Counted from the stretch's first letter, positions 49,469-63,855 are shown. The stretch: DNA of 64,000 nt from an uncultured Eubacteriales bacterium (GCA_964429695.1 CAYSCS010000003.1:6704-70703), one strand, 5' to 3'. The notes: generated by a model not told the origin, from the letters alone. Made by a program: numbers and translations.

Positions 49469-49496
49469 ATTTCAGAGCCATAAATCAACCTTATAG

Positions 49497-49738
49497 AAAA
49501 TTTAGCTCTTCTCCAAATTAGTTGGTGAAAATATGATATCTCATAGAGGAGAGAAGACTAATAACTTCTTCCTTTTGTTAGAGTTCTGCCAATTCAAAAC
49601 GCTTAGGAGATACTCCCTTCGTACTCACTTTGATATTTTGAATCTTAAGCCTCCCTCTTATTCCAATGAAATCTTATAGTTACGCGTCCAGATATTCAAT
49701 TTTTTATCAACTAATCGGGAGATAATCCTAAAATTTTT
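49497..49738 (+). repeat. Copy A of a roughly 240-bp intergenic repeat family with imperfect terminal inverted repeats.
   Basis: About 90% identity to the copies at 58307-58548 (minus strand), 60044-60285 and 63076-63316. The 5' end is AAAATTTAGaCTCTTCTCCAAATTAGTTGGTGAAAATATGATATCTC and the 3' end is TTTTATCAACTAATCGGGAGATAATCC. The reverse complement of the 3' end pairs with the 5' end. Confidence 0.7.
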
Positions 49739-49826
49739 ACTCCTTAATTATCTCAAAAATAAACCACTGACTCGACAATCAATTTCTTACTCGATATAAT
49801 CAAAATCAATAAAATTTAAGAAAAAA

Positions 49827-50894
49827 ATGGAGAAGATAGAACCAACTTATTCATTCGTCCCTTATGGAAAAGAGCTCTTACCCGAAAAGAACACTCTCGT
49901 TTTAGACGTGGGGATGAAAACTATGCCCGGAGTCATAGACCATCATCACCCTCATGCTGAACCAGAGTGCACCGCCTCCCTCATTACAAAATACCCTGAG
50001 CTTGTTCTTCACCATCTGAAGAGAGAGGAAATTTTTCCCAAGGACCCGCCGCAAATCCGGATCATCACTCACCGTCTCCCTGACTTTGATTCAATTTCTT
50101 CGATCTTCCTCTCCCTCAAGTTGCTGGAACAAGGAAATGTAGATGTCTCAATGGAAAAAATTGCTCACTATGCAAAGATTGTGGACTCTGCTTCCCTGCC
50201 AAGAGAAATTGACCTTGCTTCTACCCCTTATTCTATCCTTCGTGCCTTGTTCAGAAAAATCCATAAAGAAGAAGAATTGACTAATCTTGAAAGAGTGAAT
50301 GAAGGCCTGAAGTTGATGCGATTCCTTCATGCCAGACTGAAAGAGGGTTACGAAATACTAGAAAACAGGCCTCTTTTCCGGAGCGTGGAAAGATATCAAA
50401 AGGCAATGGAAGCTGTCGAGGAAGATTACTTTGACTACCTTGAGGATTTAAAAAGAGCACGGATGATTTCCCTCCATCTCCCTTTGATTGAAGGTCAAAA
50501 GTCAAGAAGAGTAGAAGGGCTCATCATAAAAAACCCTAGGTCCTTTCTCCTCAAGGAATGGGCGAGAAGAGACAGGGTTAATTCTACTCAAAGACAGGGA
50601 TTTTCATTCTTAATGACAAATTTTGGGGACAGAAGATACATCCTTGGAGTCTATCCTGAAACCGGAGTGTATTTGTATGGACTGGGAGAACTTTTAAACA
50701 TCGAAGAAGAAAAAAGGAGGATTGCTTGCTCTCGTCCTCTCGCTTATAGATGGTATGATGGCAATTGCCCCTTTTTCAACTTCCGAATAATCGATTCTCC
50801 CCAGGATGGGACAAGCCTTTCTCAAGAAGAAATAGAAACTATTCTCTTTAACTTCAGCCAAGAAATAGAGAGAAAATTCTCGAGAAGAGCTTAA
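49827..50894 (+). CDS. Hypothetical protein.
   Basis: It is a 355-aa ORF with good coding appearance. It contains GVIDHHHPHAEP but I recognise no confident family. Confidence 0.5.
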   Translation: MEKIEPTYSFVPYGKELLPEKNTLVLDVGMKTMPGVIDHHHPHAEPECTASLITKYPELVLHHLKREEIFPKDPPQIRIITHRLPDFDSISSIFLSLKLLEQGNVDVSMEKIAHYAKIVDSASLPREIDLASTPYSILRALFRKIHKEEELTNLERVNEGLKLMRFLHARLKEGYEILENRPLFRSVERYQKAMEAVEEDYFDYLEDLKRARMISLHLPLIEGQKSRRVEGLIIKNPRSFLLKEWARRDRVNSTQRQGFSFLMTNFGDRRYILGVYPETGVYLYGLGELLNIEEEKRRIACSRPLAYRWYDGNCPFFNFRIIDSPQDGTSLSQEEIETILFNFSQEIERKFSRRA

Positions 50895-50936
50895 GCCTTA
50901 AGAATTTACTCCCTGAGTTACTCCAGAAAACAGGAA

Positions 50937-51030
<94 letters not shown>

Positions 51031-51178
51031 TTAAAATTTCTTGTGTTATTTTAACATTTTTTTCCCTTCGGTCAAAATCTCCTTTTCTTCAAGGAGAAAA
51101 TTTTCTCTCCATTCCTTGAGAATAGAGAAATTTGAAGGTCTTTCTCTTGTTTTTAAGAGGTTATGCTTCAAAAGTTTA

Positions 51179-51268
51179 TGGCGGAGGGAGAGGGATTCGA
51201 ACCCCCGTCCCGATTGCTCGGGAAGCGATTTTCAAGACCGCCGCCTTAAACCACTCGGCCATCCCTCC
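51179..51268 (-). tRNA. tRNA-Ser (anticodon UGA), class II with an encoded CCA.
   Basis: The reverse complement reads GGAGGGA...GCGGT-CTTGAAA-ATCGC-TCCCGAGCAATCGGGA-CGGGGGTTCGAATCCCTC-TCCCTCC-G-CCA. Confidence 0.85.
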
Positions 51269-51291
51269 ACCAAGAAAAGGGATTTCATTCT

Positions 51292-52569
51292 CTACGACTC
51301 AGTTATCTTCTCCAACCCTCCAGTATAAGGTCGAAGGGCTTCAGGAATGCGGACAGAGCCCTCTTCTTCTTGATAACTTTCAAGAATGGCACTCACTGTC
51401 CTGCCTAGCGCCACTCCTGACCCATTGAGGGTATGAACAAACTCTAATCTGGATTTTGCCTCTCTTCGAAACCTGATGTTTGCTCTCCGTGCTTGGAAAT
51501 CCTCACAGTTAGTACAGGATGAGACTTCAAGATATTTTTTTTGAAAAGGCATCCACACTTCAAGGTCATAAGTCTTTGCTCCGGAAAAACCAAGGTCTGC
51601 GGTACAAAGGCTCACTACTCGATAATGAAGGTCAAGTCTCTTGAGAACTTCCTCTGCATCATTTGTCATCCTCTCCAACTCTTCATAGGATTTTTCGGGT
51701 AAAGAAAAAGTCATGAGCTCAACTTTATTGAATTGATGCTGACGAATGAGTCCTTTTATATCTTTCCCGTAAGAACCGGCCTCACGTCTGAAACAAGGTG
51801 TATAGGCGACAAATCTAAGGGGAAGAGAATCAGAGCTTAAAATTTCGTTTCTATAATAGTTTGTCAGCGGCACCTCTGCCGTAGGTATGAGGTACCATGA
51901 ATATCCCTTTAGCTTGAAGAGGTCATCTTCGAACTTGGGTAAATTCCCCGTTCCGATCAAACTTTCCTCATTGGCTATGAAAGGAGGAATCATCTCTTTA
52001 TATCCTCTTTCGCGGGTATGGATATCGAGCATGAAATTAATCAGAGCCCTTTCCAGCAAGGCTCCTCCACCCAGATAGACTGCAAATCTTGAGCCTGCAA
52101 TCTTAGAAGCTCGATCGAAATCAAGAATGCCCAGGTTTTTCCCTATTTCCCAGTGTGGCTTGGGATCAAAATTAAACTCTGGTTTCTTCCCAAACTCCCT
52201 GACGACAAGATTATCTTCAGAACCTTTACCATAGGGAACAGAAGAATGGGGAATGTTTGGTATTCCGAGTAAAATTTGTCTAAGCTCTCCCTCATTTTTC
52301 CTTAATTCATCTTCTAAATCTTTCAATTTTCCTGCTACTTCCTTCATTTCTAGAATCAGAGTTCCTGGATTCTTCCCCTCTTTTCTCATCCTTCCAATCA
52401 CCTCGGAAGCCTTATTCTGCCTCGAGCGAAGAGCTTCGACCTCTCTCAAGATAAACTTCCTCTTCTGGGAAAGTTGCACCAACTCTTCCCATGGAATTTC
52501 TATCCCTCGCGAGGCAATCCTCTCCCTCACAAACTGTATGTTTTCGAGCACAAACTTAGGGTCTAACAT
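51292..52569 (-). CDS. serS: Serine--tRNA ligase.
   Basis: The SerRS N-terminal coiled-coil arm is [22 protein letters not shown]. The class II catalytic core includes [25 protein letters not shown]. Confidence 0.9.
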
Positions 52570-52685
52570 GGCAAAAATTATAGCATATCTTTTTCAGGCT
52601 TGTAAAAAATATGGATGGGTCAGGAGATTGTGGAGAATTTTGGCCCAAAGTTTAAAAAAGAATGACTTCTTCACGAAGGGCTCTA

Positions 52686-52725
52686 TAGATCGCAAAAAAA
52701 GAAGTGGTAACTGGTAACCCACCAA
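52686..52725 (-). terminator. Candidate intrinsic terminator / attenuator in the serS leader.
   Basis: The minus strand reads GGTGGGTTA-CCAG-TTACCACTT followed by CTTTTTTT. There is no upstream gene on this strand, and the element lies about 120 nt before the serS ATG. Confidence 0.35.
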
Positions 52726-53613
52726 TCAACCTAAGATAAGAAATATTTTAAATGAGGGCTTTTCTAAAGCTCCCAGGTATCACTAAAGTGACTAATTCAG
52801 CCCAAAATGGGGATGAAGAAAAATTAAGTCATTTGGAGGACATTTTGCTCTACCTACCCACTGACACCACCTTCTATGCCAAAGAATGGATAGGGAAATG
52901 AGCCACATTTTCAGCCTCTCCCCAAGGTCCTCAACTTGAAGAAGAGGTAATCACAAATGAATTATCATCTTAAGCCTCTTAACGATTTTCGGTCAAAAAT
53001 AGAAGCGGAGAATACTTCTCTTCGATTAAAAGCTTTTTTGGACCACCTTTCTTATTGGGAAAAAAGATATTTTCAAAAACTGAGCATAGATTCAGAACGA
53101 ACGATTTCATTATGGAAGAGGCTAAGGGAAAGTCACTAATAAAAAGAGAGGCGATCCTCCATCTATTTTGCTCTAAAACATTTCATCTCAACCTCCTCAA
53201 CAAGCTTTCTGGCAATCCGTAACACAAAATTTGGAGGAACATGTTCTTCTCTCAAATAATCAGATAAGATAATTTTTCTGTAATTTTTATTCTTTCCTTG
53301 ATGATTTCATTTTTTTCTAGCAAGCGATCCCCTTTTGTTGAGAAAAATAGGCATATTTGACATGCGGAAGGCTTTTCTCCTCACTTGATTTCCAAAAAAG
53401 AGGCAACTCAAAGAGACCTCACTTCCGGCTCTTCTCTGATTTTGTGGGGTGAGCGCTAGAGAAGTCTCAGATTCTTAACTCCACACCTCTGACACAGAGA
53501 AGGTGATAAATCCGCTTTTTTATAATCCAAAGAAAAAAGGCTCGGTTATTCAAATATTCAGGTTCTTTTTTAAGAGGTTGACTCAAATCTCTCCTTAAAA
53601 TATATTAAGTAAA

Positions 53614-54156
53614 ATGAAAAAAGCTCCTGCCTTCTTGAAGGGTTACATTCAAGTCTATACTGGAAACGGAAAAGGAAAGACAACCGCCGCACTTGGTCTT
53701 GCCCTTCGAGCCGCGGGTCATGGGGTAAAGGTCTTCATAGGGCAGTTTCTCAAAGGTCAGCATTATGGAGAGCTTGATTCTATAAAAAAGCTCCATCCCT
53801 TAATCATCATCAAACAATTTGGACGAAAGGGTTTTCTCCATGTTACTGAAAACCCTGATGAAGAAGACATCAAACGAGCAAGGAAGGGTCTTCAAGATTG
53901 CGAGAAGGCAATGCTTTCAGGAAATTACAAAATCATAATCCTGGATGAAATAAATGTTGCCCTCCATTTCAACCTGATCTCAGAGGAGGAGATCTATAAA
54001 TTCCTGGACCGAAAACCAGAAGACGTGGAGGTAGTTCTTACTGGAAGGTACGCGCCTCTCTCCCTAATCAAGAGAGCCGACCTTGTAACCGAGATGAAAC
54101 AGAAAAAACATTATTACCAGAAAGGAATAAAGGCAAGGGTTGGGATAGAAAAATAA
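53614..54156 (+). CDS. cobO: Cob(I)yrinic acid a,c-diamide adenosyltransferase (CobO/BtuR/PduO-independent type).
   Basis: GYIQVYTGNGKGKTTAALGLALRAAGHG is the CobA/CobO P-loop family signature. Confidence 0.85.
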   Translation: MKKAPAFLKGYIQVYTGNGKGKTTAALGLALRAAGHGVKVFIGQFLKGQHYGELDSIKKLHPLIIIKQFGRKGFLHVTENPDEEDIKRARKGLQDCEKAMLSGNYKIIILDEINVALHFNLISEEEIYKFLDRKPEDVEVVLTGRYAPLSLIKRADLVTEMKQKKHYYQKGIKARVGIEK

Positions 54157-54160
54157 AAAG

Positions 54161-54532
54161 ATGAAAATAGAAAAGTTTGAATCCTTGGTCGAGGAAGCCC
54201 TCGCGGAAATCCCTGAAAAATTCAAAAAGTATATCAAGAATCTTGCCATCCTGGTCGAAGAAAGGCCCCCAAAAAAAATCTTTAATTTTCGAGATATATC
54301 TCCAAAAAGCTTAATCCTTGGCCTCTATCACGGAGTCCCCTTTAAACATCGTGGACCATACTACGGAAATTTGCCACCCGATGTAATCGTGATTTATAAA
54401 GAGCCAATCGAGAGCGTTTGTCGCAATGAAGAAGAGGTGCAGCAAAAAATAAAGGAGGTAGTCTTTCACGAGATCGGACACTATTTTGGGCTGAGTGAGG
54501 AAGATTTGAAGCTCAAAGAAGATGAAGGGTAA
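54161..54532 (+). CDS. Small zincin-like metallopeptidase-fold protein.
   Basis: It is 123 aa, with the HExxH motif in VVFHEIGHYFGL near the C-terminus. Confidence 0.6.
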   Translation: MKIEKFESLVEEALAEIPEKFKKYIKNLAILVEERPPKKIFNFRDISPKSLILGLYHGVPFKHRGPYYGNLPPDVIVIYKEPIESVCRNEEEVQQKIKEVVFHEIGHYFGLSEEDLKLKEDEG

Positions 54533-54574
54533 TCTAAAGCCTTTTAACCAAATATATTATTGAGAGAAGGAAAA

Positions 54575-55474
54575 ATGGAAAAGAATTTCAGAGGAATCTT
54601 CGCAGCCTTAACCACACCCTTTTTAAACGACGAGGTTTCCTTCGAAAAATTCAAGCAAAACATCGAGAAGTATAACCTGTTTCCTCTTTCCGGGTATGTG
54701 GTAGCTGGCACTTCTGGAGAAGAAGTTTTTCTTTCAGAGGAGGAAGTGGAAGGATTGACGAGGGTAGCCAAAGAGAATTCACCTTTGGAGAAAAAAATCA
54801 TCGTCGGAGTGGCCAAAGAATCAACGCGAGCCACATTTGTCCAAGCAAAGCAGATAGCAAACTTAGGAGCCGATGCTCTCTTGATAAGGACACCTTCTTA
54901 TTTCCGGACAAAAATGACTCGAGAGGCTCTCGAAAAACATTATCTCTTCATCGCAGATAATTCAAATATTCCCATAATCATCTACCATATTCCCCAACAC
55001 ACAGGCCTTTCCCTAGAGCCAGAATTAATCATAAGACTCTCTGAACATCCAAACATATGGGGAATAAAAGATAGTTCAGGCTCCCTGAGTCTCCTGGAAG
55101 AAACGATTCCTTATCTTCCTCGAGATTTTTATTTCCTTCTTGGAGCTGCCAGTCTCTTACTCCCTGGCTTAATTCTGGGTGCCTCAGGAGGGATTCTTCG
55201 TCTAGCAACCATTCTGCCGGGCCCGTGCCTCAAACTCTACAATTTGATTCAGGAAGGAAAAATTGAGGAAGCAAAGAAAATTCAGCTTGCCTTAAATCCT
55301 GTTAACAAGGCCATCACCCAGACATTTGGAATCGCGGGGACAAAGTTCGCTCTCGACCTTCTGGGGTTTTATGGAGGTCTGCCTCGCTTACCCCTCACCC
55401 CTCTTTCTGATGAGCAAAAAAAGGAGATGGAAAAGACCCTCCACTCTTTCCTCAAAAGGGATGAACCACTTTAA
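54575..55474 (+). CDS. DapA/NAL-family class I aldolase (dihydrodipicolinate synthase-like).
   Basis: GIFAALTTPF...GTSGE and the Schiff-base Lys context GIKDSSG are present. I prefer the ATG at 54575 (SD GAGAAGG) over the TTG at 54560. Confidence 0.7.
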   Translation: MEKNFRGIFAALTTPFLNDEVSFEKFKQNIEKYNLFPLSGYVVAGTSGEEVFLSEEEVEGLTRVAKENSPLEKKIIVGVAKESTRATFVQAKQIANLGADALLIRTPSYFRTKMTREALEKHYLFIADNSNIPIIIYHIPQHTGLSLEPELIIRLSEHPNIWGIKDSSGSLSLLEETIPYLPRDFYFLLGAASLLLPGLILGASGGILRLATILPGPCLKLYNLIQEGKIEEAKKIQLALNPVNKAITQTFGIAGTKFALDLLGFYGGLPRLPLTPLSDEQKKEMEKTLHSFLKRDEPL

Positions 55475-55509
55475 GACACAAAACCAGAAAGCTTGAAGAA
55501 ATAAAAAAA

Positions 55510-56718
55510 TTGACAAGGCGTTCTTTTCTCAAGAATATTCTCTCCCTGACAGCCTCTTCATCTCTTCCAGGCTCAACAAGAATCTCTGAGAAGACAAAAT
55601 CCCTAGCCCGGAAGAGAAAAGGAAATATGTTCTACAGACAACTGGGAAGAACTGGCGTCTTTATCTCTGAAATCTCTATGGGGGGAAGCCCAGTTCCGGA
55701 AATGCCTGTGCTTCTCCGTGCTTTCGAAAAAGGGGTAAACTTCATTGATACCTCTCACAACTATATGAATGGTAATAGCGAGCGTCGGATTGGTCAGTTT
55801 CTAAAAGAAGTGGGAAGAGAAAATGTGTATGTGGGGACAAAATTTCACGTGCACAAAAACTCCAGCGTAGATTCCATCATCGAAACCGTGAACGGCAGTT
55901 TGAAAAGACTTGAGACAGATTATCTGGACGTACTCTGCATCCATGGGGTCGATGACGAAAAAATTGTTAGGGATGAAAGGGTAATTGAAGCATTCGAAAG
56001 GCTGAAGAAATATGGGAAATACAGATTTAGAGGAATATCGTGTCATTCAAATCACCACAGTGTAGTGAGCAGTACCATCCAGACTTCCTATTATGACCTC
56101 ATTCTCCTTGCTTACAATGCATTTGACATCCAGACTCCGCGAAAAGAAATTGAAGTTTATGAGGACTATCTCAAGCAATGCAACCTTAGCCACTTGATTT
56201 CTCTGGCCAATTCAAGGGAGGTAGGCATCATTGCCATGAAAACCTTAAAAGTAGGTGCAAAAAGGCAGGACCTCACCAAGTATAAAACAGGTACTACCTC
56301 TTTGATCCAGGCTATGTTGAAATGGGTCCTTTCCAATCCAGGTATTACTTCCGCGCTTACGGAAATGTTGACCTTCGCTCAACTCGAGGAGGACCTGGGA
56401 GCGGTGGGAAAGGAACTCGATGAGAGAGAAAGAAAAATGCTCTTTCGCTATGTAGCGGAGAATGACGTAGATTACTGCCGACTCTGCGGCGAGTGCGGAA
56501 AGCATTGCCCTTCAGGAATCCCAACAACTAAAATACTCCACATTCTGATCTACTATGAGAACTATGGCAAGAAAGAACTCGCGCAGACTGAGTATTCACT
56601 CCTCGAGCCTTCTCAGAGAGCCAACCGCTGTATGGGTTGTGGGAATTGTGAAAGAGCTTGTCCTTACGGGGTTAGGATTCGGCACAAATTAAAGGAAGCT
56701 TCTCTTTATTTCTCATAG
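55510..56718 (+). CDS. Aldo/keto reductase fused to a C-terminal 2x[4Fe-4S] ferredoxin domain, with a twin-arginine signal.
   Basis: The N-terminus MTRRSFLKNILSLTASSS resembles a Tat signal. The AKR core is present, followed by C-terminal CRLCGECGKHCP and CMGCGNCERACP. Confidence 0.8.
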   Translation: MTRRSFLKNILSLTASSSLPGSTRISEKTKSLARKRKGNMFYRQLGRTGVFISEISMGGSPVPEMPVLLRAFEKGVNFIDTSHNYMNGNSERRIGQFLKEVGRENVYVGTKFHVHKNSSVDSIIETVNGSLKRLETDYLDVLCIHGVDDEKIVRDERVIEAFERLKKYGKYRFRGISCHSNHHSVVSSTIQTSYYDLILLAYNAFDIQTPRKEIEVYEDYLKQCNLSHLISLANSREVGIIAMKTLKVGAKRQDLTKYKTGTTSLIQAMLKWVLSNPGITSALTEMLTFAQLEEDLGAVGKELDERERKMLFRYVAENDVDYCRLCGECGKHCPSGIPTTKILHILIYYENYGKKELAQTEYSLLEPSQRANRCMGCGNCERACPYGVRIRHKLKEASLYFS

Positions 56719-56992
56719 ACCGTGCACCTTGATCCGACCATGCTTTACCTGCGTCATCCCTGGATTTAGCTCAGGCAAGGCTTACCTGCAGCACAAGAAT
56801 TGACCCTGCTACCGCTGCTACCTTCCGGTCCTGACGGGCTTCACAGGGCATTCTTTGCACAGGGCCCTGACCGTCAACACCACTTCCAGAAACCCAGACC
56901 AGACAAAGCATAGCCTCGTCAAGGAGTTCAGCCCCACTATAGCGGATTGTGGGTTACAGGGCACCGCTAGCTCCCCGCCTAGCACGGCCTTT
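56718..56992 (-). ncRNA. ffs: Signal recognition particle RNA, long (Alu-domain-containing, Bacillus/archaeal-type) form.
   Basis: The minus strand contains GUCAGGACCGGAAGGUAGCAGC, the helix-8 GGAA tetraloop consensus. Its 5' part, GCCGUGCUAGGCGGGGAGCUAGCGGUGCCCUGUAACCCACAAUCCGCU, and its 3' end, AAGGUGCACGGUC, closely parallel B. subtilis scRNA. Confidence 0.8.
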
Positions 56993-57038
56993 AAATCTTA
57001 ACTTTCTCCCCTAAAACATGTCAAATCCAGCTGAGGAA

Positions 57039-58289
57039 TCAGAACCTTAAGGCAAGACCAACCCGAAGCAATAAACCATCCCAGAATCCCACCTCGCCTC
57101 TCAAAATCAAGGGATGAAAAATCTCGGCTCTCACTCCGAGATTAAGCTGGAAGAGAAGGAAAATGTTGGGGATATTGAAATCTGCCTCCTCCTCTGCTTC
57201 CTTGAAGCTCTTTGTCTCAGAGCTTTCAATCTCTTCTTGAGGACCTAGCCAGTTATAATTTCCAGAAAATTCGTAATGCACTTCTCCCTTAAGAGATGCG
57301 ATCCCAGCCCCTAGCACAAAATAGGGTGTTACTTTCCAGTTAGGTTTTATCTCCCAGCGAAAACTCAAGTTCGTAGTCAAGGGCGAAAGCCTGAGATAAG
57401 CATCTGTTTCGACATCAGCATATGTTCCATCGGCGAATCTTTGCTTAAAAGGACCCTTCAGGGTAAAACGCAGATTAGTCTTTTCCAGAGATAACCCCAG
57501 ACTGAAGCTTCTTTTTTCCCCATGAGGAAAAAACCTCATCTCGATCCCATAGTTTGAACCGCCCGTGTCTAAAACAAAACTTTGTTCACCTGTGGTGCTA
57601 ATAAGAGCCGGGTGCGACTCCCTTACCTTACCAGAAACTTTTTTCCCTATCTCCTCACTCACTTCTTCAATCAATCTCTCCTCAAACAAGCCTTTGAAAA
57701 TGTCAAAACTCCATGAGCCACAATGAACCTCAACTTCCCATTTCCCACCTTCATAGGAAAATTTGGGGGAAGGACCTACAACCTCCTGAGCCGGAGGTGA
57801 TGAGACAGGTGAAGGAGGACTCTCACCTTTAAGGGAACTCTTCATCATCTTTTCTTTTTTTATTTTTTCCTTTTCTTCAAAGAAGAAATCCACGAACTGT
57901 TGTGGATAAAACAGGGGAGAGATTTCTTTCTCAGCGTCGATTTCTAAGACCCTTTGCAACCACTCTCTTGATTTATCTAAATCCTCACTCATGAAATACG
58001 AGAGAGAGAGCCCAAAGTATACCCTGGATAAATTCAAAATGTTATCTGTAAGAGGAATTGCCTTGAGAAAGAATTGAATTGCTTTTTCGTATTCTCTGCT
58101 CTGAAGAAAATACTCAGCCTGTATCAACACCTCTTCGAAAGAATCGTCCTTCTCCTCAGGATAAAGACTCATAGCCAGATTAGAAAATAACCACACCGCT
58201 AAAAACAGAATAAAATTTTTCTTTAAACCCATAAGCATCCTTCTCATCTCAAGAGCTAAAATCCTAACTTCATGAGAAATCTTTGTCAA
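57039..58289 (-). CDS. Putative outer-membrane protein (a TPR-like N-terminus plus a beta-barrel-like C-terminus).
   Basis: A signal/anchor segment is followed by TPR-like helices. The C-terminal half has alternating hydrophobic residues and ends with an aromatic terminal residue (…GLALRF), as in OMP beta-barrels. Confidence 0.45.
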   Translation of the reverse strand: MTKISHEVRILALEMRRMLMGLKKNFILFLAVWLFSNLAMSLYPEEKDDSFEEVLIQAEYFLQSREYEKAIQFFLKAIPLTDNILNLSRVYFGLSLSYFMSEDLDKSREWLQRVLEIDAEKEISPLFYPQQFVDFFFEEKEKIKKEKMMKSSLKGESPPSPVSSPPAQEVVGPSPKFSYEGGKWEVEVHCGSWSFDIFKGLFEERLIEEVSEEIGKKVSGKVRESHPALISTTGEQSFVLDTGGSNYGIEMRFFPHGEKRSFSLGLSLEKTNLRFTLKGPFKQRFADGTYADVETDAYLRLSPLTTNLSFRWEIKPNWKVTPYFVLGAGIASLKGEVHYEFSGNYNWLGPQEEIESSETKSFKEAEEEADFNIPNIFLLFQLNLGVRAEIFHPLILRGEVGFWDGLLLRVGLALRF

Positions 58290-58306
58290 TATGAGTTAAA
58301 TTTTTT

Positions 58307-58548
58307 GGATTATCTCCCGATTAGTTGATAAAAAATAGAACATCTGTGCGCGTAACTATAAGATTTCATCGGATTAAGAGGGGGATTCAGATTCAAAATA
58401 TCAAAGCGAATACGAAGGGAGTATCTCTTAAGCGTTTTGAATTGACCGAACTCTAACAAAAGGAAGAAGTTATTAGTCTTCTCTCCTCTACGAGATATCA
58501 TATTTTCACCAACTAATTTGGAGAAGAGCCAATTTTTTTCTCTTTTCA
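58307..58548 (-). repeat. Copy B (inverted orientation) of the roughly 240-bp terminal-inverted-repeat family.
   Basis: Its reverse complement aligns end to end with copies A, C and D. Confidence 0.7.
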
Positions 58549-58985
58549 TTCCCCTTTGAATATCAACCTCTGCTCAGAATTTAGCCCTGTTTTAAACAAA
58601 TTTTCCTCTTCCTGCTCTCTTGGCTCTTCTTGCCCAAATCTTTAGTCGGATGATGCCTAAGCTCATCAAAAAATATATACTTCTGGCATAATCAACTCTC
58701 TTTTTTCAAGCTGGATTTATGGTTTTGTTCAAACAAAAAAACCATGAGCATAGCCTTAAAGAAAATCAAAGCTTGGTTTGCAATCAATTTACATCAAAAG
58801 AGGTATGGTGTCTGCCGAGTTTAAGTGGAAGTATGAATGCTTACGAAAATTTCTTCCTTCTCCAAGGGATAGAGAAAAGCAGAAGAAGAAATTAAATTTT
58901 CAGGCAAATCATTAAGGAAAAGGAAGAAGATATTGATTAAAAAAGATAAAATTGCTATATTTTAAAATTAAGAGAGGAGAAAAAG

Positions 58986-59675
58986 ATGTTTTTTTGGGAT
59001 TATACGTTCGTCTTATTGATTCCGCCTCTTCTCCTTGCTCTCTATGCTCAACAGAAAGTGAGAAGCACCTATAAACATTTCAGCACAAAGATTGCCTCCT
59101 CCCGAGTCACTGGTTCTCAGCTGGCTTGGCAAATCTTAAGGTCGGCGGGTGCAAATGAGGTTAAAGTCGAAGTAATTCCCGGTCAGCTAACTGATCACTA
59201 TGACCCGCGGAAAAAAGCACTTCGCCTTTCAAAAGCAGTCTCAGCGAGTAATTCTTTGGCTGCACTTGGAATCGCAGCCCACGAAACAGGACATGCCCTC
59301 CAGCATCACATGGGATATTTCCCTTTACAAATAAGAAATGCCATCTATCCTCTTGCAAGTTTCGGCTCCTCACTTGCCTTCCCCATATTTTTCATAGGCT
59401 TCATCTTCAGCAGGCAAGGTCCAAGCATCCTCATGGATATAGGGATTTTTCTTTTCGCAGGAGCAGTCCTCTTCAGTGTGCTTACCTTACCTGTGGAATT
59501 CAATGCCTCATCCAGAGCATTGAATCTTCTTAAAGAAGGAGGCTATTTAAGCAAGGCTGAGCTCCAAGGAGCAGGCAAGGTCCTCTCGGCAGCAGCTCTG
59601 ACTTATGTAGCGGCGACTGCGATGGCTGCCATGCAATTATTGAGGCTCTTCCTGATAAGGAACTCAAGGAGATAA
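58986..59675 (+). CDS. Membrane-associated neutral zinc metallopeptidase (Zn_peptidase_2-like).
   Basis: HExxH sits in AAHETGHALQH, flanked by TM helices. The 229-aa size is typical of this family. Confidence 0.7.
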   Translation: MFFWDYTFVLLIPPLLLALYAQQKVRSTYKHFSTKIASSRVTGSQLAWQILRSAGANEVKVEVIPGQLTDHYDPRKKALRLSKAVSASNSLAALGIAAHETGHALQHHMGYFPLQIRNAIYPLASFGSSLAFPIFFIGFIFSRQGPSILMDIGIFLFAGAVLFSVLTLPVEFNASSRALNLLKEGGYLSKAELQGAGKVLSAAALTYVAATAMAAMQLLRLFLIRNSRR

Positions 59676-60043
59676 TCCCTTTTTAAGAAAAACGAAATGG
59701 AGGAAGGTCAGTCTCTTAAATTTGAAGGTTAATCCGCTTTTATTGCAAGTATAAAAGAGATATTTTCATGACTCGGGAAGGAATTCAATCTCATTGAATT
59801 CATTTTTTAAGAGGTTAATTATTTGAATATCAATAAGAGAAGGGCCATTCATCATAAATTTTTCTCTAAGATATCTCCTTTAAAGCCTCTCTTTAGGCTT
59901 TTTGAAGAACTTGATTCTCAAAGTTTACCCAGTAAAATCAGCAGAACAAATTTAAATGATTTGACTCAATAAAGATTGCACATAAAGAATAAACAATTTA
60001 TCATGAATTAATCCCATTTAGGTAGATATGTTAGAGAGAAGTA

Positions 60044-60285
60044 AAAAATTTAGACTCTTCTCCAAATTAGTTGGTGAAAATATGATATCTCATAGAGTAG
60101 AAAAGACTGATAATTTCTTCCTTTTGTTAGAGTTCGGCCAATTCAAAACGCTTAGGAGATACTCCCTTCGTATTCGCTTTGATATTTTGAATCTGAATCC
60201 CCCTCTTATTCCAATGAAATCTTATAGTTACGCGCCCGGATATTCTATTTTTTATCAACTAATCGGGAGATGATCCATAATTTTT
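60044..60285 (+). repeat. Copy C of the roughly 240-bp terminal-inverted-repeat family.
   Basis: It aligns with copies A, B and D. Confidence 0.7.
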
Positions 60286-60301
60286 AAAGAGAGGAGTTAA
60301 T

Positions 60302-62908
60302 ATGGAAAAAAAATTAATTAAAAGAAATGTTATCTTTGTCCCTTTCTTTCTTCTCATCTTCTCCATATTTTCACTCGCTCAAACAGAGCCCCAACAATTT
60401 TTAGGGCACATGGTTGGTGCGGATCGAAAGCTTGCTGACTATGGGCAGATTCTGGCTTACTTTGAGAAGCTCGATCAGGAATCTGAAAAAATTAAAGTCA
60501 TAGAAATAGGAAAATCAACGCTAGGAAAGCCCATGATTATGGCTATCATTACCTCTGAGAAGAACATGGAAAATCTGGATGAATACAGGCAAATTTCAAA
60601 GAAACTAAGAGATGCGAGAGACATCGAACCTGAAGAGGCAAAACAGCTTGCCAGAAGAGGAAAAGTAATCCTCCTCATAACCTGCAATATACACGCTACA
60701 GAAATCGCCTCCTCACAGATGGCTCTGGAATTTGCTTATAACCTCGCATCGGGTAATACTCCTTTTGACATTGATAAAGTCCTCGAAGATGTAATCGTCC
60801 TCCTTTGTCCTACCATAAATCCTGATGGCCAGATGATGGTTACTGATTGGTACAGAAAATATGTGGGAACAAGATACGAGGGAGGACAGATGCCCTGGCT
60901 CTATCATCATTATGCAGGACATGACAATAACAGAGACTGGTTCATGTTTAACCTCAAAGAAACCCAGGCAGTAACAAAAGTTCTCTACCACGATTGGATT
61001 CCTCAAATTCACATAGACGAACATCAAATGGGTTCAACAGGTGCGCGGCTTTTCATTCCCCCTTTCATGAACCCTCCCATACCAAACGTTCATCCTCTCT
61101 GCTGGCGTGGGGTCAATCTCTGTGGGGCAAATATGGCTTATGACCTCCAAAAAAAAGGTTTTAAAGGTGTTGTGCACGGAAGAAGTTATACTGGGTGGTG
61201 GATTGGAGCATGCGATGATACTTCCTGGCTCCACAACTGCATCGGTCTTCTCAGTGAAATGGCATCAGTTAAAGTGGCAACCCCGATTTATATTGAGCCC
61301 ACAGAGATTCCTGAAGCTTATTATAAAAAGCAGATGGAATTCCCCGACCCCTGGCCGGGAGGATGGTGGAAGTTGAGAGACCTTGTGGACTATGAGCTAA
61401 CTCTCTCGATGAGCCTGGTCAAGACGGCTCATCTTCATAAAGAGGACTTTTTGTTCAATTTTTATAAAATGTGTAAAGACTCAATCGAAGAAGGCAAAAA
61501 AGGTAAACCTTTTGCCTTCGTCATTCCCAAAGAGCAACCAGATTATCCAACCACTCTGAGAATGCTAGAAATATTGAAGTTCGGCGGAGTGGAAATCTAT
61601 AAAGCGAAAAAAAGTTTCATCGCAGATGGAAAATTCTATCCCGCTGACTCTTTTGTAGTGCTCATGTCTCAACCCTACAGAGCATATGCCCAGGCACTTC
61701 TTGAAAAACAGAAATATCCTGATATTCGTCAATATCCGGGAGGCCCTCCCGTTCCTCCCTACGATAATGCGGGCTGGACCCTTCCTTTACAGATGGGAGT
61801 CAAGTGTGAGCAGATTGAAAATCCGTTTAGCGCAGAACTCGAGAGTTTAGAAAATATAACATATTCTTTCAACCTTAAAGAACTTGACTCTCCCTACTTA
61901 GTGTTCGATTCAAGAAAAAATGCCTCATTTGCCGTTATTTTTAATCTCCTCAAAAAAGGAGTAGAGGTACGCAGAGCAAGAGAATGTCTGAAGTCTCGAG
62001 GGATAGATGCTGCAATAGGAAGCTTTATCATCAAAAACTCTCCAGAAATAAGAGAACACCTGAAACCACTTCTTGAGAAATGGAGAGTCTCCTGTGAGGG
62101 GCTTGATGATATTTCCTCTATTTCTGCATCTACGATAAGAAATCCTCAAATTGGCCTGTATCAATCCTGGCGAGCCAATATGGACGAAGGTTGGACAAGG
62201 TATGTTCTTGATGACTTCGGAATCTCGTACTCGACACTGCACAATGAAGATTTCAAGGTTTCAAAAAAAGAGAAGAAAAAGCTCAGCGAAAGGTTTGATG
62301 TACTTATTTTCGCAAGCGAAAGACCGGAAATCATCAAGACTGGTAAGCCATCTCCTGAGTCACGCTATGCGAGATACTTCACGGCAATGCCTCCAGAGTA
62401 TGAAGGCGGTATCGAGAAAGAAGGAGTCGAGGCTTTGAGGGAATTTGTGGAGAATGGAGGAATTCTGGTTACTCTGAACCAAGCATGTGAGCTAATTCTC
62501 AAGGAATTTGAACCCCCTATTTCTAATGCCCTGGAAAAAGTGGAACAGACCAAATTCTTCTGCCCAACCTCTCTTTTAAGGATCAAGGTAGATAACACAA
62601 ATCCTGTAGGATACGGATTGGCGGAGGAAACCGCAGCAATGTTTTCTGATAGTCTGGCTTTCTCCACATGGATTCCCCCAAGCGGAGATTGGGAGAGGAA
62701 GGTTGTCGCCAGCTATCCTGAAGAGAATATCCTCTTGAGCGGATGGTTGATTGGAGAAGACATCATTGCTCGCAAGGCTTCTGTGGTTGATCTCAAGTAC
62801 AAGAAAGGCCACTTTATCCTCATCGGTTTTTGCTCTCAACACAGGGCTCAATCTCATGGCACGTATAAATTTCTCTTCAATTCCCTTCTCTACCCTGTTG
62901 AAAAATGA
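60302..62908 (+). CDS. Secreted M14-family zinc carboxypeptidase-like protein with a large C-terminal extension.
   Basis: It has a signal peptide. HATE is the M14 HxxE zinc ligand, and TINPDG and the conserved downstream His region are present. The 868-aa length implies extra C-terminal domains. Confidence 0.7.
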   Translation: MEKKLIKRNVIFVPFFLLIFSIFSLAQTEPQQFLGHMVGADRKLADYGQILAYFEKLDQESEKIKVIEIGKSTLGKPMIMAIITSEKNMENLDEYRQISKKLRDARDIEPEEAKQLARRGKVILLITCNIHATEIASSQMALEFAYNLASGNTPFDIDKVLEDVIVLLCPTINPDGQMMVTDWYRKYVGTRYEGGQMPWLYHHYAGHDNNRDWFMFNLKETQAVTKVLYHDWIPQIHIDEHQMGSTGARLFIPPFMNPPIPNVHPLCWRGVNLCGANMAYDLQKKGFKGVVHGRSYTGWWIGACDDTSWLHNCIGLLSEMASVKVATPIYIEPTEIPEAYYKKQMEFPDPWPGGWWKLRDLVDYELTLSMSLVKTAHLHKEDFLFNFYKMCKDSIEEGKKGKPFAFVIPKEQPDYPTTLRMLEILKFGGVEIYKAKKSFIADGKFYPADSFVVLMSQPYRAYAQALLEKQKYPDIRQYPGGPPVPPYDNAGWTLPLQMGVKCEQIENPFSAELESLENITYSFNLKELDSPYLVFDSRKNASFAVIFNLLKKGVEVRRARECLKSRGIDAAIGSFIIKNSPEIREHLKPLLEKWRVSCEGLDDISSISASTIRNPQIGLYQSWRANMDEGWTRYVLDDFGISYSTLHNEDFKVSKKEKKKLSERFDVLIFASERPEIIKTGKPSPESRYARYFTAMPPEYEGGIEKEGVEALREFVENGGILVTLNQACELILKEFEPPISNALEKVEQTKFFCPTSLLRIKVDNTNPVGYGLAEETAAMFSDSLAFSTWIPPSGDWERKVVASYPEENILLSGWLIGEDIIARKASVVDLKYKKGHFILIGFCSQHRAQSHGTYKFLFNSLLYPVEK

Positions 62909-63075
62909 GAGTTTTCTAAACTCGATAGATTCAGAAATAAGAGAAAATTTATCTTTGGTTGCACTCAATTCTGGGAATAACAATTCATTTCTCCCTTTTT
63001 CAATCATAAATAATTAAGAGAATAACTTGTGCTTTAAGGATAAAGACTCTGCCTCACGCCTTCGAAGAAAGAGAT

Positions 63076-63316
63076 AAAAAATTTAGACTCTTCTCCAAAT
63101 TAGTTAGTGAAAATATGATATCTCATCGAGGAGAAAAAACTAATAACTTCTTCCTTTTCTTAGAGATCGGCCAATTCAACACCTTTAAGAGATACTCCCT
63201 TCCTATTCGCTTCGATATTTTGAATCTGAATCCTCCTCTTATTCCAAAGAAATCTTATAATTACGCACCCAGATATTCTATTTTTTATAAACTAAGGGGG
63301 GAGCTAATCCAAAATT
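63076..63316 (+). repeat. Copy D of the roughly 240-bp terminal-inverted-repeat family.
   Basis: It aligns with copies A to C. It is the most diverged copy. Confidence 0.7.
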
Positions 63317-63519
63317 GATTTAAACATTTTTCTCTCTACCCGTTCTTCTTACTCTTTGGAGGGAATTATAAATACATGAATTTGAATTATATTTTTACAA
63401 CCTAAAAATATGAATAAAATAAGTTTCCTCCCTTTATATGCTAAAAGAATAAATATTTTCCAGAAACGAAAAGATTCTTGATATTTTTCGAATATTATTA
63501 TAATCTAATATAAAATAAG

Positions 63520-63855
63520 ATGAATAAAAAACTTTTCTATGCACTTTATTCAGAATTTTGCAAAACCCTTGCCAATCCCAAAAGACAAGAAATTCTTGAT
63601 AATCTACGAAGGAAAGAAATGCCAGTAAAAGAATTGATGGAAACTACAGGAATTCCCCAAGCAAACCTCTCCCAGCACCTTTCTCTCTTAAGGTCAAAAG
63701 GAATAGTCACTGCTCGTCGGCAAGGGAATACAATCTATTATTCTCTCACTCACCCAAAAATCATCAAAGCCTTTGATTTGATAGGTGAAGTCTTGAGAGA
63801 TTTACTGAAGTCTCAATCAGAAACAATTTCCTCTGTTACAAGGAGAAAGAAATAA
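63520..63855 (+). CDS. ArsR/SmtB-family transcriptional regulator.
   Basis: A winged-HTH is present: LANPKRQEILDNL...VKELMETTGIPQANLSQHLSLLRSKGIV. Confidence 0.8.
   Translation: MNKKLFYALYSEFCKTLANPKRQEILDNLRRKEMPVKELMETTGIPQANLSQHLSLLRSKGIVTARRQGNTIYYSLTHPKIIKAFDLIGEVLRDLLKSQSETISSVTRRKK

Follow-up and report, generated by a model that had tools for sequence, protein, structure and literature searches.

An intergenic repeat family of an uncultured bacterium, very probably a miniature transposable element mobilized by an ISL3-family transposase

The window analyzed here is a stretch of 64,000 nucleotides from an assembly labeled as an uncultured Eubacteriales bacterium (GCA_964429695.1, CAYSCS010000003.1:6704-70703), and it contains four copies (A to D) of a short intergenic repeat. 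We interpret these repeats as a noncoding, nonautonomous miniature inverted-repeat transposable element (MITE) of 224 to 225 bp that is mobilized in trans by a transposase of the ISL3 family, and we put the probability of this interpretation at roughly 0.9. An earlier, sequence-only reading of the window had called the repeats MITE-like. That description is borne out by their terminal inverted repeats, by an 8-bp duplication belonging to each copy, by their dispersal, and by the occurrence of the same ends on elements that bear an ISL3 transposase.

Repeat finding in the last 17 kb and in the whole 64-kb window returned only one repeat family, with three direct copies and one inverted copy. 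These were the same four that had been picked out before, and a 25-nt core pattern likewise matched the window four times (0.00 matches expected by chance). An alignment of the four copies with their flanks showed sharp unit limits, with homology extending from G[G/A]CTCTTCTCC to GGGAGATAATCC; the exact limits listed in Table 1 were taken from an alignment of eight copies together with an analysis of the flanks. The limits first proposed also took in target-site duplications and AT-rich flanks and thus exceeded the true ones by 7 to 11 bp on either side. Pairwise identity among the window copies was 85 to 94%, close to the earlier estimate of about 85 to 90% but reaching slightly higher. As had been stated, all four copies are flanked by genes and none lies inside a gene. 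The ends, described as mutually complementary, do form a true terminal inverted repeat, which is longer than reported: it spans 27 nt, is imperfect (20 of 27 positions agree between the ends) and is kept in all eight copies. The left repeat reads GGCTCTTCTCCAAATTAGTTGGTGAAAA and the right one, reverse-complemented, GGATTATCTCCCGATTAGTTGATAAAA; the sequence for scanning for family copies is GGNTNNTCTCCNNATTAGTTGNTNAAAA.

The additional copies came from metagenome contigs of the JGI, in which an internal 24-nt pattern identified four further distinct copies (E to H), all on other contigs. The element is therefore not confined to the window locus, and its copies are spread over at least five contigs of Cone Pool metagenomes. 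A copy number of eight is a lower bound, since the scan missed some contigs known to carry the element.

Target-site duplications, which the sequence-only reading had suggested looking for, were found at every copy. The 8 bp immediately outside both ends formed direct repeats at each of the eight copies, and their sequence varied from copy to copy (for example, ATCTCTCA/ATCTTTCA, AAATTCGA/AAATTTGA, ATATTTTT/ATATTTTT and AAAAAATT/AAAAAATT). Over the eight distinct copies, the left and right flanks agreed at 53 of 64 positions (8 bp on each side), and at 56 of 64 once the boundary of copy E had been corrected by one base. When flanks of different copies were re-paired (derangements), the mean agreement was 33.6 (standard deviation, 3.1; maximum, 46), and none reached 53. 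The signal had its sole peak at a length of 8 and an offset of 0 and was lower at other lengths or offsets. Such 8-bp duplications at AT-rich targets are the signature of a transposase that makes 8-bp staggered cuts. A composite transposon formed by the inverted pair B and C around a Zn-peptidase gene was ruled out: copy B has a perfect duplication of its own and was therefore inserted independently.

The GGCTCTT ends and the 8-bp duplication suggested ISL3, which was followed up in the literature and by a direct scan. In the ISL3 element ISArsp7, the inverted repeats read GGCTCTTCGCGGTTGGTGGTGAAT and the direct repeat is 8 bp long (PMC6305408). A MITE of Microcystis with GGCTCTTCG ends and 8-nt direct repeats has been assigned to ISL3, since full-length ISL3 copies share both its ends and its duplication length (PMC11448079). 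For the scan, the query was made up of the positions conserved between both MITE ends (TCTCCNNATTAGTTGNTNAAAA), and one genome per species was searched. This core was present in 83 stretches of other genomes, and the prefix GGNT, which is absent from the query pattern, accompanied 64 of 84 core matches. Thirty-three matches were no more than ∼50 nt away from the end of a contig or locus, the usual footprint of a multicopy insertion sequence (IS) that breaks assemblies. Paired inverted ends delimited elements of 175 to 421 bp, one of 1034 bp and two of 1344 bp. The open reading frames (ORFs) of the two 1344-bp elements (L074 and L085) matched the Pfam families Zn_ribbon_ISL3, HTH_Tnp_ISL3 and DDE_Tnp_ISL3 with E values of 3e-6 to 1e-24. 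Duplications with 8/8 agreement were also seen at six shorter elements of other genomes.

The correspondence between the MITE and these ISs extends to the individual ends. In L074 and L085 the terminal repeat reads GGNTCNTCTCC..ATTAGTTG.T.AAAA; their left inverted repeat (IRL) agreed with the right end of the MITE at 24 of 27 positions and their right inverted repeat (IRR) with its left end at 23 of 27, and the right end of copy C matched the IRL of a 1344-bp element at 26 of 28. Moreover, the A/T difference at position 6 that separates IRL from IRR in the IS is identical in the MITE. The asymmetry of the supposed stem is therefore inherited from IS ends, and no RNA explanation of it is needed.

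In both 1344-bp elements, which are independent copies in two metagenome-assembled genomes (MAGs), the reading frame of the transposase is interrupted at one and the same A8 run (GTT AAA AAA AAC TGC; L074:1120-1160 and L085), which leaves two ORFs. The canonical ...KKK LPQAAIAFDLFHV... continuation is regained by a -1 shift on A AAA AAA. This suggests programmed frameshifting or transcriptional slippage, a shared assembly error or pseudogenization being possible alternatives; we know of no description of either mechanism for ISL3.

From these features the following mechanism may be proposed. A full-length IS would provide, in trans, a DDE transposase of the ISL3 family that binds and cuts at the 27-nt terminal repeats, the right end of plus-strand copies being of the IRL type and the left end of the IRR type. 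Having opened AT-rich intergenic DNA with cuts staggered by 8 bp, the enzyme would attach the ends of the element there, and repair would then produce the 8-bp direct duplication. The burst of insertion was probably old and is now probably silent: copies differ by 6 to 16%, and they are probably immobile at present, as the available contigs showed no transposase sequence other than decayed remnants. The copies had been thought to be maintained, but neutral decay of old insertions would produce the same divergence. Effects on neighboring genes would be incidental.

Table 1. Positions of the MITE copies, their flanking duplications and related elements
Feature	Location	Strand	Details
MITE copy A	49504-49728	+	225 bp; left end AGCTCTTCTCCAAATTAGTTGGTGAAAA (IRR-like), right end ...TTTTATCAACTAATCGGGAGATAATCC (IRL-like)
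Duplication at copy A	49496-49503 and 49729-49736		GAAAATTT and TAAAATTT; 7/8
MITE copy B	58307-58530	-	224 bp; orientation opposite to A, C and D
Duplication at copy B	58299-58306 and 58531-58538		AATTTTTT on the plus strand; perfect, 8/8
MITE copy C	60053-60276	+	224 bp; ATG of M14 peptidase gene (60302) 25 nt downstream of copy end
Duplication at copy C	60045-60052 and 60277-60284		AAAATTTA and ATAATTTT; 6/8
MITE copy D	63086-63310	+	225 bp; most diverged copy, 84-87% to the others
Duplication at copy D	63078-63085 and 63311-63318		AAAATTTA and AAAATTGA; 7/8
MITE copy E	L006:7232-7454		
MITE copy F	L008:6669-6892		same locus as L007 in another sample
MITE copy G	L005:4141-4364		same contig as L010
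MITE copy H	L009:4958-5182		
1344-bp ISL3 element	L074:333-1676		transposase ORFs
1344-bp ISL3 element	L085:1119-2462	-	transposase ORFs; perfect 8-bp duplication AAATTTAT
Contigs ending in IRL, Desulfobacteraceae MAG SRP323688_co1_105	L016, L019, L021, L025, L029, L039, L048, L052, L064, L066, L070, L075, L079, L081-L083, L086, L087		

Traces of ISL3 elements were also present on the contigs of the repeats themselves. The contig of copy G contains, on the minus strand of L005:66-239, an IRL followed by the 5' untranslated region and the initial 13 codons of a gene for an ISL3 transposase. This IRL (AGAATAATCTCCCGATTAGTTGA) lies 3.9 kb from copy G, toward the contig end, and its core ATCTCCCGATTAGTTGA is identical to that of the MITE right end. 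The 13 codons (MSSLSIVHYFPFP) are homologous to the start of the L074 transposase (MSELSISPYFPFR), with a 50-nt block at 80% identity (E = 2e-6). Homology to the transposase ends at a TGA after the 13 codons and the contig ends 65 nt further on; L005:1-239 represents a truncated IS or, alternatively, a further deletion derivative. A second trace lies at a distance of 50 bp from copy E, where 46 codons from the C terminus of an ISL3 transposase remain (...IRRKAYGYRDMEYFKLKI...; tblastn, E = 1e-4); this remnant matched Pfam DDE_Tnp_ISL3 at E = 0.004, below the curated cutoff. ORFs to the right of copy E were not those of a transposase, and a search for the parent element with this remnant gave a single partial match of 39 amino acids.

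The interior of the MITE yielded no link to a particular parent. Smith-Waterman comparison of the interior with the 1344-bp IS gave z values of -0.5 to 1.3 against 500 shuffles, not above the shuffled controls, and tblastn of the ISL3 transposase against all frames of the MITE returned nothing significant. The best alignment (52 amino acids, 27%, E = 0.05 in a tiny database) lay on the strand that is inconsistent with the IRL/IRR assignment and was rejected. L074 and L085 were ruled out as direct parents, with no internal similarity beyond the terminal repeats. Since there was no subterminal homology to these two elements and the true parent was not found, we classify the MITE as mobilized by ISL3 and not as a derivative of those ISs.

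Several points weigh against the proposed interpretation. Mobility itself was not observed, and mobilization in trans is what the sequence features would imply. No intact transposase with these ends was found among the contigs available for the host organism, and the 1344-bp ISL3 elements come from MAGs of other phyla and have only the terminal repeats in common with the MITE. In the nearest relatives, intergenic DNA was too diverged for exact empty sites to be aligned. Lastly, the duplications of copies C and F, and less so of D, are imperfect (6-7/8) and are weaker evidence when taken singly; such imperfection is expected of old insertions.

Two readings in which the repeat encodes a product of its own fared poorly. 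The ORF that starts with MISHRGEK... was confirmed as open in copies B, C and D and frame-shifted in copy A. Its ATG is kept in all eight copies, it is open over 63 to 67 codons in B, C, D and F, and gene callers have annotated two copies as proteins. A family of small-protein genes built on this 63-amino-acid ORF (MISHRGEKTNNFFLLLEFGQF...) is nevertheless extremely unlikely. The frame is broken in copies A (a 1-nt shift in a run of C), G and H and reads through in E, and variable columns were distributed over the three codon positions as 15, 19 and 23, with no third-position excess. There was also no Pfam match, and the earlier rejection of a coding function thus agrees with our data. Only two clusters among 5.8 billion sequences matched the predicted protein, both being this element, and in the colinear relatives from other MAGs all frames are interrupted by stops. 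Genes for a small structured noncoding RNA, or a repeated cis-regulatory leader with a functional long terminal stem, are very unlikely as well. Both ends are able to pair over ∼30 nt, the plus strand folded somewhat better than shuffled sequences (z = -2.06), and several differences between the left and right ends are G-U compatible on that strand, but the minus strand folded at chance (z = -0.61). Rfam gave no match at the gathering threshold, and only noise at E values up to 10. In an alignment of 12 sequences from three lineages, the RNAalifold covariation term was -0.39 kcal/mol and 4 of 40 pairs showed a double change; the terminal stem is an invariant terminal repeat and does not covary, and internal helices are lost in relatives with 57 to 68% identity. 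Furthermore, the duplication at every copy is a signature of DNA transposition that an RNA gene leaves unexplained, and the asymmetry of the ends is the same as that between IRL and IRR of ISL3 elements. The alternative of an RNA with a long terminal stem, raised by the sequence-only reading, is thus not upheld.

A regulatory role acquired after insertion would be compatible with a MITE origin. According to this idea, the MITE has been co-opted, and its IRL-type end, lying near gene starts, supplies or modifies a promoter, an operator or a 5' stem. A gene start lies 14 to 207 nt from the right end in 6 to 7 of the 8 copies, 15 of the 22 elements of the terminal-repeat class have their IRL end directed toward a start, and read-through RNA could form a long terminal hairpin, with the plus-strand folding bias given above. 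We nonetheless consider co-option improbable. Among codirectional intergenic cases the bias was 8 versus 4 and not significant, copy F is antisense to both of its neighbors, promoter- or terminator-like sites are not enriched in the element (28 versus 24.7 expected in the region), and the best such promoter-like site at copy A lies downstream of the element and outside it. The same gene cluster is also present in relatives that lack the element. In L094 to L097, whose seryl-tRNA synthetase (SerRS) is 73 to 75% identical to that of the window, the corresponding intergenic regions are shorter and contain no element, and the gene order SerRS - CobA - Zincin - DHDPS - aldo/keto reductase - TPR - Zn-peptidase - M14 peptidase - DsrE - YjbQ is kept. 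Three copies do bracket peptidase and outer membrane protein genes, as had been pointed out, but this association appears incidental because the relatives keep the gene order without the repeats. As to the transposase, a MITE moved by an enzyme of another family that also makes 8-bp duplications, such as IS6/IS26, IS256 or IS66, is highly improbable. The length of the duplication is not unique to ISL3, and an intact partner was not found in the available host contigs; however, ISL3 was the only transposase found within elements having this terminal-repeat core, the terminal repeat starts with GGCTCTTC like published ISL3 ends, and ISL3 fragments with the same repeat core occur on the same contigs.

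The contigs with copies E to H have a GC content similar to that of the window (39 to 42%), and all copy-bearing contigs presumably belong to one genome. Proteins of the window were matched on contigs of the IMG metagenomes 3300022548 and 3300010284, of one ENA assembly and of one Logan assembly. The closest relative of the seryl-tRNA synthetase was 77% identical, and named relatives at ∼70% were "Candidatus Aminicenantes" and "Aminicenantaceae" MAGs. Aminicenantes are listed among the taxa of the hot-spring mat in the paper on that mat. The host is thus probably an uncultured Aminicenantes bacterium of a hot spring. A 23-nt pattern that is present four times in the window had no match in the genome collection of GTDB representatives, and the species is therefore not among these representatives; blastn of one copy against a plasmid collection also gave no match.

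Related short elements were found in other MAGs, the taxonomic labels of which are automatic and may be loose. Acidobacteriota STD1_135 (L027 and L030) and "Eubacteriales" SRP231805_co4_39 (L068 and L089) have elements of 223 to 224 bp with the same terminal repeats and 8-bp duplications. They are colinear with the MITE without indels, at 57 to 68% identity, and have internal blocks in common with it (e.g., AAYTATAAGATTTCATTG and AACTCTAAYAAAA). Elements of 357 to 421 bp in Candidatus Saccharicenans Yes71-14 have only the outer 80 to 176 nt in common with the MITE. All of these elements have the terminal repeats and 8-bp duplications of the MITE, but they constitute separate subfamilies in other genomes. 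Together with the MITE they form a broad MITE superfamily that accompanies one ISL3 clade. It is a rather doubtful idea that the 223- to 225-bp element is a single, horizontally spreading MITE lineage, with length and internal blocks kept in MAGs assigned to three distant groups, namely Aminicenantes, another Acidobacteriota and "Eubacteriales". If it were true, the interior would carry a function, for which subterminal binding sites of the transposase or of a host factor needed for mobilization, or an outward regulatory signal, would be candidates; the latter would account for the slight preference of the IRL end for positions immediately before gene starts.

Further variants of the terminal-repeat class were seen in the same searches. 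A 1034-bp element of Candidatus Saccharicenans Yes71-14 (L011:922-1955) is bounded by the same terminal repeats and lacks a transposase. Its interior is GC rich and contains an internal duplication, with one stretch of ∼40 codons listed twice among the ORFs, and the element resembles an expanded MITE. An M14 peptidase homolog near a related Saccharicenans element (L078) was dismissed as coincidence, being 3 kb away and on the other strand. Some 650 bp from copy H, a segment of ∼95 bp (L009:5841-5935) starts with GGCTCTTAATCC and ends with ...TTTTTATCAGCTAATATGGAGATGAACC; its flanks have no matching 8-bp sequence, and decay or internal deletion of a related element probably gave rise to it. In the Desulfobacteraceae MAG SRP323688_co1_105, ∼20 contigs end 22 to 50 nt inside the same IRL (GGATCATCTCCAGATTAGTTGATAAAAATAAG; Table 1), and a high-copy ISL3 element is what fragments this assembly. 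Contig ends in the same IRL were also seen in several Thermodesulfobacteriota MAGs and in one single amplified genome.

Other features of the window and its contig are unconnected with these elements or differ from them in type. Between copies A and B lie a large-type bacterial SRP RNA (56720-56987, minus strand; 201.7 bits) and two tRNA genes of 87 to 91 nt, a class II length (50940-51030 and 51182-51268, both on the minus strand), all of them ordinary and unrelated to the repeats. A gene for a regulator of the ArsR/HTH_20 family (63520-63855), located between the M14 peptidase and DsrE-like genes, is absent from the L094/L095 locus, where these two neighbors are 145 nt apart. As both this gene and copy D are missing there, ∼820 nt of the window are lineage specific. 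On the parent contig, ∼2 to 3 kb past the window end (L002:15489-16718), ORFs with a weak match to rve (integrase core) belong to a different, IS3/IS481-like type of IS. They lie near the end of the 73.6-kb contig and may be the cause of it.

The practical value of these observations lies mostly in annotation, and a new biological question would arise only if the conservation of the interior across lineages proves functional. Public databases call the repeats hypothetical proteins of 63 to 83 amino acids, and masking them as a MITE is advisable. A 22-nt signature recovers related MITEs and ISs in many MAGs, and the terminal-repeat class breaks assemblies of several uncultured lineages. The data also document ISL3-type mobile DNA in a hot-spring bacterium with Aminicenantes as its closest named relatives. 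ISL3-associated MITEs have already been described, but this family and its MAG relatives have not, as far as we found.

Other known repeat families, including Correia, RUP/BOX, ERIC, TIMEs and PATEs/REPs, resemble the MITE in being small, intergenic, repeated, hairpin capable and noncoding. Correia elements of Neisseria and RUP elements of Streptococcus duplicate TA, Tn3-derived TIMEs have ∼38-bp GGGG... ends and 5-bp duplications, and IS200/IS605-derived PATEs and REPs have subterminal hairpins and neither terminal inverted repeats nor duplications. None of these families fits the combination of an 8-bp duplication with GGCTCTTC ends, and the PATE/REP class was ruled out by the terminal inverted repeats and the duplication of the MITE. 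Autonomous ISL3 elements (ISArsp7, L074 and L085) are 1.3 to 1.45 kb long and have Zn_ribbon_ISL3, HTH_Tnp_ISL3 and DDE_Tnp_ISL3 domains, whereas the MITE is without coding capacity. ISArsp7 ends, GGCTCTTC...GGTGGTGAA, are of the same terminal-repeat type as those of the MITE, with 8-bp duplications at AT-rich sites (PMC6305408). In Microcystis aeruginosa PCC 7806, matching full-length ISL3 copies occur in the same genome as the ISL3-associated MITE, whereas the contigs of the present copies yielded only decayed fragments; the Microcystis element also belongs to another host phylum and has a different sequence, with only the first ∼8 bases of the terminal repeat in common. In its organization, however, it is like the MITE described here, being short and noncoding, with GGCTCTTC ends, 8-nt repeats and many intergenic copies (PMC11448079).

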